64,000 bases of DNA from a virus (taxonomy: Duplodnaviria > Caudoviricetes), in IMG/VR virus record IMGVR_UViG_3300003320_000367, positions 4,819 to 68,818 of that record; one strand, 5' to 3'. The notes below the pieces were generated by a model, which searched no databases, was not told the DNA's origin, and saw nothing but the letters and a program-made list of their open reading frames with translations. Positions 5,874 through 58,000 of the stretch are shown here, piece by piece (within the stretch, counting starts at the first letter, position 1; each line of letters opens with the position of its first letter). The translations under genes were made by a program, and so were the position numbers.

Positions 5874-6761
5874 ATGATGACCAACCTTCTCCGTCCTGGC
5901 CTGTCGGCCGCCAAGTCCGCCGGTGCGGGTCTGGACCTGCTGACTGCGGCCGGTGTGGACGGATACGAGCCTGGGTGGGCTCACCCCTACGCCACGGACC
6001 CCTTCTCGCCCGTGTTCTACGCCGACGGCGGGGACGAGGACGACGAGGGTGACGAGGACGAGGACGAGGAGGACGACGACAAGGGCGAGGAGGGCGACGA
6101 CGAGGACGACGATGACGACGAGGACAAGGGCAAGTCGCCCGAGGAACTCGCCGCCGAGGTCAAGCGTCTCCGTGCCGCCTACCTGAAGAAGCTGAACAAC
6201 TCCCGCAACCGGGGCAACCGGATCAAGGAGCTGGAGACCGGCAAGTCCAAGCTGGAGCAGGACTTCGCCACCCTTCAGGAGCAGTTCGCCGAGCTGCAGA
6301 AGACTGCCGGCAAGGAGATCGACTCCGAGGCCGCGCAGCGCCGGATCAACGAGCTCGTGGAGAAGGCGCGTGAGGACGGCAAGGAGGCGTTCAAGCCGGT
6401 CGTCATCAAGATGGCCGCCCGTGCCGAGCTCATGGCGCAGGGAGCGCGTCCGACCCTGGTTGACCGGCTCGTCCGGATGATCGACGTCAACGAGGTCGAC
6501 ATCGACGACGAGGACGGCACCATCGACGTCACGGACCAGGTCCTGGCGCTCAAGAAGGACATGCCCGAGATGTTCGGGCCGCGCAAGGCCACCACCAAGC
6601 GCACGCGCAAGACCACTGCCGGGGCCAACGGCGGCGAGGGCTCGGGGACCGGCAAGGGCTCCGCGCGCAAGGCCGGTGGAGCCGGTGGGAGCGACGAGGG
6701 TGCCGGTGAGGAGCGACTCACCGCTGCCCAGAAGGTAGCGAACCGGCTGCGAGGCCTGTGA
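5874..6761 (+). CDS. capsid scaffolding protein
   Basis: Acidic D/E tract, coiled coil, LKKDMPEMF-type C-terminal motif; upstream of the capsid gene. Confidence 0.8.
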   Translation: MMTNLLRPGLSAAKSAGAGLDLLTAAGVDGYEPGWAHPYATDPFSPVFYADGGDEDDEGDEDEDEEDDDKGEEGDDEDDDDDEDKGKSPEELAAEVKRLRAAYLKKLNNSRNRGNRIKELETGKSKLEQDFATLQEQFAELQKTAGKEIDSEAAQRRINELVEKAREDGKEAFKPVVIKMAARAELMAQGARPTLVDRLVRMIDVNEVDIDDEDGTIDVTDQVLALKKDMPEMFGPRKATTKRTRKTTAGANGGEGSGTGKGSARKAGGAGGSDEGAGEERLTAAQKVANRLRGL

Positions 6762-52661: not shown

Positions 52662-52725
52662 GGACTCATCGGCACCGGCATCCACCGGCGGACGAGCAGC
52701 GCTTCCCAGCGGGCTCGTTTCGTCC
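52662..52725 (-). ncRNA. type II hammerhead ribozyme HH-E (variant core CCGAUGA)
   Basis: GGAC GAAA CGAGC...GCUCG UC| CGCCGG uggaug CCGGUG CCGAUGA GUCC; predicted cut after 52691. Confidence 0.78.
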
Positions 52726-53148
52726 TTGTTGTTGATGAGTGCCGGCATCTCCTCAGCTTGTTGAGGGTTGCGGTTGCCGGCATACCGTCCACCTTTCGAC
52801 TTCCTGGCCAGAGGTGCCCCGAGCGGGGTGTCTCACTTGACCCAGGCTTGAAGAGGTGGAGTTCGTCGCTCGCTAGCAGCTTTCAGTACCGCCCGGATGT
52901 GTGCGCTTCCTCCACCCGCAGTGGGTGGCGGCTGCCCGTCCTCGGGAAGTCCAGTCGCTTCGCTCGCAACTACCGGTTTTGGGGAGTCCGGTTCCTGTCT
53001 AGAGTCAGCGGCCAGGACCAGGGTCCTGTGCGCGATCTCAGCCGTCTCTCTTGGCTGTCCTGCTCGGGTTCGCGGTCTTCGGGCGGAACCTCGACCCTCG
53101 GCCAGACCGGCCATCCGGGGAGTTCGTTCCTTGCCCTCGTCGCTTCCT
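52692..53148 (-). ncRNA. candidate structured non-coding RNA B (promoter to HH-E cut)
   Basis: No SD-led ORF; 5' part homologous to 57582-57675. Confidence 0.55.
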
Positions 53149-53155
53149 GAGTAGA

Positions 53156-53185: not shown

Positions 53186-53352
53186 TCAGCCCCTACCTGG
53201 TCATTCACCGTGTTTGACCAGGTAGGAGCATGTGCAAACTTCGTGGAACTTTTTTCGACTTTTTCTATTTCCGCAGGCCGGCATGAGTGCGACGCGTCAT
53301 GGGGTGAATCGGGCGAACCATATCGTCAACGGCGATTCACCCGGCCTCCGGC

Positions 53353-56993: not shown

Positions 56994-57064
56994 TCTGGAG
57001 TGGAACTTTCTTGCCGGCACAGCCGGGGAGCTGGGGGCTCCCCGGCTGGCCGTCGCGCCTTGCC

Positions 57065-57268
57065 TCAGCGCTGGATCTCGTCCGGACCCGGCGTGCCGAG
57101 CGGGTTCTCGACCTGGATCAGGTCGGTGCCCTCGGCCCCGGTGGGCTGCGGCCGGTCGGTGATGCGGCTGTTGTCCGCGTGGTTCCCCGACTGGCCACCC
57201 TGGCCCTCGTGCTGCGTCCCGTTCGGCGGGTTGCTCGCCTGCGGTACGCGCTTCGGCAGGATGCCCAT
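57065..57268 (-). CDS. small disordered hypothetical protein
   Basis: AAGGAGG SD adjoining HH-A. Confidence 0.65.
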   Translation of the reverse strand: MGILPKRVPQASNPPNGTQHEGQGGQSGNHADNSRITDRPQPTGAEGTDLIQVENPLGTPGPDEIQR

Positions 57269-57282
57269 CGTGTTCCTCCTTG

Positions 57283-57346
57283 AGACTCCTCAGGACCGCC
57301 GTTCAGCGGCCGACAGCCAGCGTCTCCCGACGGGGCTGTTTCGTCT
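57283..57346 (-). ncRNA. type II hammerhead ribozyme HH-A
   Basis: AGAC GAAA CAGCC...GGCUG UC| GGCCGC ugaacg GCGGUC CUGAGGA GUCU; predicted cut after 57312. Confidence 0.9.
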
Positions 57347-57678
57347 TGTGTGTTGCGAGGGCGTCGGTGGGACCTACCATCCGCTCCGCCCTCTCGCCAG
57401 GCCCTTGCGCCTTGCCAACCTCTCGGATGTTCTCTCGTGGGGTGGCTGGTTCCGTGTCTCCCTAGCCAGTCCCGCGTCCGTCCCCGAGGAGTTGCGCGCT
57501 ACTACCCTGTCTACCAGTTTTCTTGTGGTGGGTTGGTGCCCAGTCTCCGAGATTGCATTTCCTGCTTCCGACCCCTCGCACGGCCGCCTTGCTCGGTGTT
57601 CGCGTTCTTCGGGTGGAGCCTCGACCGTCGGCTGGAGTCGCCGTCCCGGGAGCTTCGCTCGCCGCCCTCTCGCTTACA
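57313..57678 (-). ncRNA. candidate structured non-coding RNA A (promoter to HH-A cut)
   Basis: No SD-led ORF; homologous to 53053-53146. Confidence 0.55.
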
Positions 57679-57684
57679 GGAACT

Positions 57685-57714
57685 ATCATGCTCCATATCC
57701 ACGGGAAAGGCAAC
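57685..57714 (-). promoter_or_regulatory. putative early promoter GTTGCC-N18-CATGAT
   Basis: Variant of the promoter family with TGGAG before the -10. Confidence 0.6.
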
Positions 57715-58000
57715 ACGGCGTCTACCTGGTCAAACATGATGAATGCCCTGGTAGGAGGCTTGCCGGCATTTCGAAAGTTTTTTGAAGAATCTTCGTTTGA
57801 CCAGGTAGACCTGAGGATGGGCTGGGCGCGGCCCTACGTGGCCCGTAGGCGGCTCCGCGCGGGCTCTCGGGCCCAACGGGGCTCGGGCCGGTCCTACGGC
57901 CGTTACGCGGCCACGTAACGGGCATGCCGGCATGCGAGCGCCCGAACGCGAGAGAGCCCCGCTCCCTGAGTGGGAACGGGGCTCGGGCCGGTTGGCCGGA

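Follow-up and report, generated by a model that had tools for sequence, protein, structure and literature searches.

A promoter-proximal structured RNA with a predicted hammerhead-made 3' end in a relative of cluster BN Streptomyces phages

The virus genome analysed here very probably encodes a real, conserved and structured non-coding RNA of ~367 nt, termed RNA A, whose 3' end is made by a type II hammerhead ribozyme (HH-A) that precedes the ribosome-binding site of a short gene. A paralogue, RNA B, lies a few kilobases away, and both RNAs follow promoters that share an operator-like sequence. Our tentative reading is that RNA A is an independently functional RNA that is released by processing.

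Genomic setting of the two paralogues

The window, that is the whole stretch of 64,000 nucleotides that was analysed, comes from a genome record of 68,818 bp that is rated complete. Between 52.5 and 58 kb it shares 83-86% nucleotide identity with Streptomyces siphophages of cluster BN, with matches to Lizz, ShakeNBake, PHTowN, Rooney, Gibson, phiRKBJ001, Wentworth and Dryad and a more distant one to Yara. RNA A, RNA B and the nearby genes of interest all lie on the minus strand (Table 1), and in every annotated relative the sites of the two RNAs are gaps of ~560-860 bp without an annotated feature. Each paralogue lies behind a promoter and terminates in a type II hammerhead that sits immediately upstream of a ribosome-binding site; that of RNA B is termed HH-E. 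The 5' start of RNA A is probably at ~57678, give or take 3 nt. In the transcription unit of RNA A (unit A) the leader of 367 nt is longer than the coding part of 204 nt, and the unit ends at a strong hairpin with the next promoter behind it; no internal terminator was seen in unit A before this end hairpin.

The second gene after RNA A (P0001) and the first gene after RNA B (P0002) encode proteins that are themselves paralogous (54% identity over the N-terminal 120 residues; both phrog_20596) and that combine a conserved helical N-domain with a coiled coil. Their AlphaFold model has a pLDDT of 78; a Foldseek comparison of the fold with the PDB gave no match at E <= 0.001, and a VIA-wide structure search returned coiled-coil matches only and no functional clue. 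The N-domain has homologues in small Prim-Pol/D5/integrase islands of Streptomyces (L260, L261), where the RNA is absent beside them, and in Yara-like genomes the P0001 homologue is located upstream of the RNA unit and not downstream of it. Because of this change in synteny, and because the island homologues lack the RNA, we claim no RNA-protein pair.

Table 1. Features of the RNA A and RNA B loci, with positions in the window unless a contig is named.
Feature	Position	Strand	Remarks
Operator-like half-sites TGACCAGGTAG around the promoter	57722..57808	-	exact at 57798-57808 (+) and 57722-57732 (-)
Operator-like copy with 2 mismatches	57744-57754	+	near the RNA A promoter
Putative promoter	57685..57713	-	-35 TTGCCT (57713-57708), 17-nt spacer, -10 CATGAT (57690-57685)
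RNA A, ~367 nt	57312..57678	-	3' end is the predicted hammerhead cleavage site after C57312
P1, imperfect hairpin ("rod")	57602..57673	-	six short helices P1a-f; comparative and MFE
P2 hairpin	57569..57586	-	CGGCC / 8-nt loop / GGUCG; four sequence versions
P3 small hairpin	57555..57565	-	GCA-GGAAA-UGC; position kept, sequence and length free
H-type pseudoknot	57513..57542	-	S1 UGGG/CCCA, S2 ACCA/UGGU, A-rich loop CCACAAGAAAAC between
3' domain ("rod 2"), long-range closed irregular hairpin	57396..57511	-	apical loop GGGAGACACGGAACC
Terminal hairpin before the linker	57359..57391	-	hairpins of other sequence in relatives
CA-rich linker CGCAACACACAA	57347..57358	-	probably unstructured; upstream of HH-A
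HH-A, type II hammerhead	57284..57346	-	cleavage predicted after C57312
67-aa ORF served by HH-A	57065..57268	-	start ATG at 57268
12-bp GC hairpin after the 67-aa ORF	57011-57052	-	followed by the next promoter, 56992-56964
P0001	56318-56920	-	second gene after RNA A
RNA B, paralogue, ~460 nt	52691..53153	-	5' domain 52969-53153; 127 bits with model R1
HH-E	52663-52724	-	hammerhead at the end of RNA B
P0002	52181-52645	-	first gene after RNA B
Streptomyces homologue (G128 element)	L266:8383-8720 = G128:C1, about 574,380-574,720	-	found with R1 and pattern

A conserved RNA without coding signal

RNA A contains 9% U and 62% purines. Over the 366 nt between promoter and hammerhead, the GC content by codon phase is 0.64/0.67/0.65, a flat 0.64-0.67 as opposed to a GC3 of 0.88-0.95 in four neighbouring genes. 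Frame-breaking indels are present inside the best-conserved part of the RNA, namely a 2-nt insertion in Wentworth-type relatives and 1-nt indels between RNA A and RNA B, and the sole SD-like ATG ORF in RNA A, of 27 codons as read by eye, is located in a hairpin that is replaced in relatives. A preliminary description of this DNA had seen no SD-led ORF here and proposed a non-coding RNA, with which the lack of any coding signal agrees. It had also aligned the two paralogues closely over ~95 nt; this similarity is real (75% identity over 124 nt, blastn E 5e-15) and extends to about 170-230 nt. Of the further blocks that it had listed as shared, however, UAGACAGG occupies non-homologous positions, after the pseudoknot in RNA A and before the pseudoknot in RNA B, its true counterpart in RNA A being GGAGACUGGG.

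We built a covariance model (R1) on 30 distinct 5' domains. In every relative whose genome is complete or nearly so it detects two copies and no more, and it yields no further match at other places in the window or in the remainder of the genome. Homologues of the downstream protein P0001 led to more diverged genomes, each of which likewise carries two copies, of further subtypes. Among diverged genomes, Yara, L256 and L259 show 86-88% identity in the 5' domain of RNA A with near-full coverage, compared with 68-82% for the flanking genes. Across the window no family of Rfam 15 reaches its gathering cut-off; when the 351-nt leader was compared with Rfam at E values up to 10, as the preliminary description had suggested, snoRNA models were the only matches, so that the leader is assigned to no Rfam family, and the RAGATH motifs in Rfam gave no match to it either. 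Among GenBank phages, blastn in distant mode detected the RNA only in nine listed BN-cluster records. Scans of metagenome and genome contigs with a degenerate 21-nt pattern returned mostly chance matches, from which sorting with nhmmer retained only BN-like contigs.

Boundaries of the transcript

The putative RNA A promoter (TTGCCT-17-CATGAT) matches 8 of 12 consensus positions by our own count and falls below the threshold of a generic sigma-70 scan, but it is conserved in relatives. In the metagenomic relatives L010, L013 and L014 a different promoter is found upstream of RNA A, and homology is kept from the -10 onward, which indicates that the constrained unit starts at the predicted transcription start. 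The promoter proposed in the preliminary description is thus backed by its conservation and by the homology boundary at the -10, although not by the generic scan. The replacement promoter in these three genomes is of the phage's general early type, GTAGCG-N17-TAAAGT. Exact copies of the operator-like sequence TGACCAGGTAG are found in the window only at the RNA A promoter and at the RNA B promoter (53193-53225), and with up to 2 mismatches it occurs 30 times in the window vs 12.6 expected. Directly upstream of the RNA A promoter, at 57830-58000 of the window (minus strand), there are GC-rich repeated hairpin words, among them CCGGCCCGAGCCCCGTT twice, together with inverted repeats rich in CGTA/TACG. 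These elements may be terminators or insulators of the preceding unit.

At the other end, HH-A has a complete core (CUGAGGA, GAAA and GUC) and three stems, with stem II open and directly abutting the SD AAGGAGG, which is followed by the ATG of the 67-aa ORF. Relatives have either GUC or GUA as the cleavage triplet and show compensatory changes in stems I and III. The Rfam score of HH-A is 22.6 bits (E 0.42 in a 6.5-kb search), which does not reach the gathering cut-off of 37 bits, because stem III carries a long insert and stem II is short. The hammerhead named earlier as the boundary of the RNA therefore stands on its intact core and covarying stems and not on the Rfam cut-off. A hammerhead pattern matches the window 4 times vs 0 expected, and a looser search yields eight hammerheads, each of which ends a few bases before an SD and start codon, as is likewise the case in relatives. 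Cleavage by HH-A would give an upstream product of ~367 nt, and the release of RNA A by self-cleavage, as put forward in the preliminary description, is consistent with the in silico tests, from which we infer it. RNAalifold suggested a long-range pairing of ACUCCCGGG with the hammerhead core, which was rejected because it is not backed by covariation and is interrupted in L259 by an A-C mismatch.

The core of HH-E reads CCGAUGA (U4C) in most genomes, CUGAGGA in L009, L014, L025 and L010, and CCGAAGA in Dryad and L043. Since the core varies among genomes, the cleavage efficiency of the RNA B hammerhead may differ between phages. In the linker before this hammerhead, a CA-rich repeat of the ACAAC/CACAAG type is expanded in two contigs (L025:3635-4143 and L043:3624-4129). 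A conserved motif, GGTTCGCTCGTACCTCTAAACGA, is found inside the long stem III of the hammerhead in L267 (about 6010-6060) and also in L268, and it matches intergenic DNA of the Streptomyces phages Salutena, Jevington and Marav.

A fold supported by compensatory changes

Comparison of ~33 distinct copies supports a fold with a ~72-nt rod (P1), the hairpins P2 and P3, an H-type pseudoknot and a second rod. The folding energy of RNA A is no better than that of shuffled sequences (z -0.53; opposite strand -0.45). In a MAFFT alignment, which was not fitted to the structure, 83.6% of the cells pair, and 23-47% do so in slid controls. In the same alignment 10 pairs are changed on both sides vs 4.3 in shuffles, with none of 500 shuffles reaching 10. 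Much of this covariation separates subtypes A, B, C and Y at a small number of deep splits, so that the independent events are modest in number. An alignment fitted to the model increases the paired cells to 87.1% with the same counts of both-side changes. The frequent G-U pairs indicate that the fold is specific to the transcribed strand. The preliminary description had proposed a structured phage RNA and an alignment of homologues for covariation; the RNA is non-coding, it is conserved above its flanks in diverged genomes, and its compensatory pair changes, which no shuffle equals, exceed both the shuffled and the slid controls, so that the proposal is upheld.

The P1 rod is the individual minimum-energy fold in 15 of the 17 distinct variants. 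Its helix P1c exists in six versions (GAGC/GCUC, GGAAC/GUUCC, GGAGC/GCUCC, GGAAGC/GCUUCC, GGA/UCC and AGCG/CGCU, the last being suboptimal) with full or near-full complementarity. For GGUCGAGG...CCCGA a local hairpin was considered, but the long rod was preferred, as the local stem is disrupted in subtype C and P1c is fully paired in five or six versions; the local hairpin is a possible alternative conformer. All four compensated versions of P2 (CGGCC/GGUCG, GGGCC/GGUCC, CAGCC/GGCUG and GGGCC/GGCCU) form the same hairpin, and the P3 site carries longer and different hairpins in paralogue B, including UUCG- and GCAA-looped versions. Within the pseudoknot, S1 is formed in 20 of 20 distinct variants and S2 has at least 3 pairs in 19 of 20. 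S1 switches in a compensatory manner from AGGG/CCCU to UGGG/CCCA, and S2 is found in the compensated versions ACCA/UGGU, ACCG/CGGU, ACCGG/CCGGU and CGGG/CCCG. Of the 32 pairs predicted in rod 2, nine still pair after changes on both sides, and three sequences show a two-pair swap from CUCGGG/UCCGAG to UCCGGG/UCCGGA. No antisense target for its apical loop GGGAGACACGGAACC was found in the window. Compensatory changes are also present in the terminal hairpin (pairs 134-152).

Homologues beyond cluster BN

When 151 Streptomyces genomes were compared with R1, a single weak match was obtained, in the genome G128. The pseudoknot of this match fits a degenerate 29-nt pattern without mismatch and is the only such match among 401 Streptomyces genomes. 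The G128 RNA has the same order of parts, with a short P1, P2, P3, the pseudoknot, a short rod 2 and a CA-rich linker, and ends in a tRNA-like cloverleaf that closes with CACCA, the hammerhead being absent. It is located upstream of an excisionase-like ORF and a tyrosine integrase, as part of an integrated element. A promoter/operator that resembles the phage one precedes it. The cloverleaf-like MFE structure of its 3' module has an ensemble frequency of 0.59. For this module ARAGORN reported 0 genes, the tRNA and tmRNA models of Rfam made no call, and one weak mascRNA-like match was obtained (21.9 bits); identity as a tmRNA or tRNA is therefore unsupported by ARAGORN and Rfam.

A scan of IMG/VR with the pseudoknot pattern identified at least eight further uncultured viral contigs of 26-88 kb, in which the module (~34-35 nt) is almost invariant and the flanks of the leader are unlike those of the BN phages. 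Among GenBank phages, the IMG/VR leaders match at the pseudoknot with BN records only. After the module, a hammerhead follows in L267 and L273, and a T-arm-like structure is located just before the SD in L269; in L270, L271 and L272 neither structure was found after the module within the sequence examined. Only the 5' half of a hammerhead is retained in L272. The same place before the SD is thus taken either by a hammerhead (window, L267 and L273) or by a tRNA-like structure (G128 element and L269), and the 3' processing module appears to be interchangeable between the two. The tRNA-like modules of G128 and L269 are presumably cleaved by RNase P. In this respect the two relatives recall MALAT1/mascRNA, where the 3' end is formed via a tRNA-like structure: a tRNA-like structure follows the homologous RNA where the phage has its hammerhead. 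The likeness is limited by the fact that RNase P cleavage is a prediction for G128 and L269 and that the window itself uses a hammerhead.

Possible modes of action

The reading that we tentatively prefer, in which RNA A is released and functions independently, is favoured because the RNA dominates its unit, both of its ends would be protected, and the 3' device is swapped while the RNA is kept. RNA A would be transcribed from the minus strand from its operator-controlled promoter, and self-cleavage by HH-A would set its 3' end. The same cut would also free a short downstream mRNA with a 5' hairpin beside its ribosome-binding site. Hammerhead chemistry leaves a 2',3'-cyclic phosphate, which together with the stem III hairpin would shield the 3' end, as the 5' rod would shield the 5' end, and RNA A could persist as a free molecule after cleavage. 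It would then act alone; its most likely role would be to bind a conserved host or phage factor, either as a platform or as a decoy, and the near-invariant pseudoknot may be the part that such a factor recognises. Against a released RNA speak the folding energy, which is no better than shuffled, and the apical loop, which has no complementary target in the phage. Furthermore, all copies are located in 5' leaders directly behind promoters, as cis-regulatory elements would be.

A broader and unlikely extension of the released-RNA reading places the ~35-nt pseudoknot, rod 2 and the flanking hairpins at the centre of an undescribed class of mobile-element RNAs, whose modules would have been exchanged among several actinophage lineages and at least one integrated element. 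Members of this class would always be promoter-proximal, would be freed by an interchangeable device, either a hammerhead or a tRNA-like structure, and would bind either a small ligand or one conserved host target, for which RNA polymerase, Rho, an RNase and a defence sensor are candidates. Structured RNAs found beside hammerhead and twister ribozymes are the subject of the RAGATH idea, and the present locus is similar in that a polycistronic phage region would be cut by several hammerheads, with an unassigned structured RNA beside one of them. Arrays of type II hammerheads have been found to flank (pro)phage genes (Perreault et al., 2011, PMC3088659). Unlike in these cases, the ribozyme here forms the 3' end of a promoter-proximal RNA of ~367 nt, and relatives may carry a tRNA-like structure in its place.

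The main alternative to release, possible but less probable, is that RNA A is a cis-acting regulatory leader, which folds close to the promoter and would target either the nascent transcript or the polymerase that is making it. Such a leader could mediate processive antitermination or an anti-Rho effect in the manner of put, nut and EAR, or could be a ligand- or protein-sensing switch, and the ribozyme would simply detach it from the mRNA once its work is done. The position of both paralogues and of every homologue found, directly behind a promoter and before genes, fits this explanation. In the phage, two promoter-proximal paralogous copies are placed behind co-regulated promoters that share a private operator, which recalls nutL/nutR of lambda and putL/putR of HK022, where two paralogous elements lie just downstream of two promoters with one operator; the EAR element, in addition, contains a pseudoknot. 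Long untranslated RNAs require protection from Rho, which a leader of this kind would provide. If cleavage is slowed by the U4C core of HH-E, RNA B would not be separated from its mRNA and would act in cis, which argues for a leader and against release of this paralogue. However, RNA A is much larger than the put, nut and EAR elements, would be severed by a ribozyme, and has no sequence or Rfam similarity to them. Put-type RNAs that act in cis are thought to need a tether, and a cut 370 nt downstream would sever this tether. Unit A is also short and has no terminator inside that would need read-through.

The pseudoknot bears on the same question. Compact H-type pseudoknots with an A-rich third loop are known from the preQ1-I, SAM-II and guanidine-III aptamers and from the luteovirus frameshift pseudoknot of the BWYV type. 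In architecture only, the module of RNA A is similar, with the order S1, CA loop, S2 (CCG), one junction base, S1', A-rich loop and S2' (CGG), and its ~35 nt show very high sequence conservation, as in small pseudoknot aptamers. The near-invariant module with its A-rich loop thus resembles small aptamers and polymerase-binding elements in size and architecture, in favour of a cis-acting leader. On the other side, no riboswitch family and no antitermination family of Rfam matches, no terminator, SD platform or other ordinary expression platform adjoins the pseudoknot, and the SD is >200 nt away, beyond the ribozyme. A frameshift signal of the BWYV type (-1) finds no slippery heptamer upstream of the pseudoknot and no ORF or coding signal.

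More improbable is a leader that controls processing or decay without a specific partner, in which the rods would be substrates or shields for RNase III or RNase J/E and would set the timing and stability of the transcript, with the early RNase III sites of T7 as an analogy. Sequence conservation would then stem from nuclease recognition. The two long imperfect duplex rods would suit such a role in a phage that already uses RNA processing, with eight hammerheads before early genes, but it leaves unexplained why a near-invariant pseudoknot is common to otherwise unrelated leaders and why a leader discarded by a hammerhead is conserved above the level of coding sequence.

An element that acts at the level of DNA or in replication, be it a protein-binding DNA array or an RNA transcribed at an origin or used as a primer (ColE1 and the RNA-based origins of some mycobacteriophage prophages being examples), is very improbable. 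The compensatory changes and the G-U pairs speak for selection acting on RNA transcribed from one strand, and the predicted 2',3'-cyclic phosphate end could not serve as a primer, as DNA polymerase cannot extend a 2',3'-cyclic phosphate. RNA-based replication origins have been described in mycobacteriophage prophages (Wetzel et al., 2020, PMC7157519), and non-coding RNA regions of ~400-500 bp are known to be needed for replication in actinobacteriophages; the region studied here is likewise unannotated, non-coding and conserved. It differs in that cluster BN phages are described as lytic (PMC8852317), and that each genome carries two copies, which are placed before ordinary genes. That the region encodes a small protein or leader peptide is hardly credible, since the ORFs of 63-91 codons that can be drawn on the minus strand start upstream of the -10 or lack an SD, the sole SD-like ATG ORF is not conserved, the three codon phases hardly differ in GC, and indels of 2 nt and 1 nt occur among relatives.

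Implications

It is rare to find a large structured RNA without a known function, and phages have already yielded such RNAs. New here are the fold model and the subtypes of the RNA, a pseudoknot module that, as judged from sequence comparison, recurs almost unchanged in other uncultured viral contigs and in one integrated element of Streptomyces, and a tRNA-like structure that appears to take the place of the hammerhead in two homologues, those of the G128 element and of L269. Since both ends of RNA A are defined, by the promoter and the predicted ribozyme cut, the RNA can be made and tested directly, and the compact, near-invariant pseudoknot offers a handle for pull-downs, probing and ligand screens. 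The paralogues and the swaps of modules, of the promoter as well as of the hammerhead against a tRNA-like 3' end, constitute natural comparative experiments, and the question is testable in the phages themselves, as members of cluster BN have been isolated and grow on standard Streptomyces hosts. If RNA A acts in cis, it would represent a new type of regulatory leader; if its target is a host factor, it would amount to a new device for takeover or counter-defence in actinobacteria that is based on RNA.
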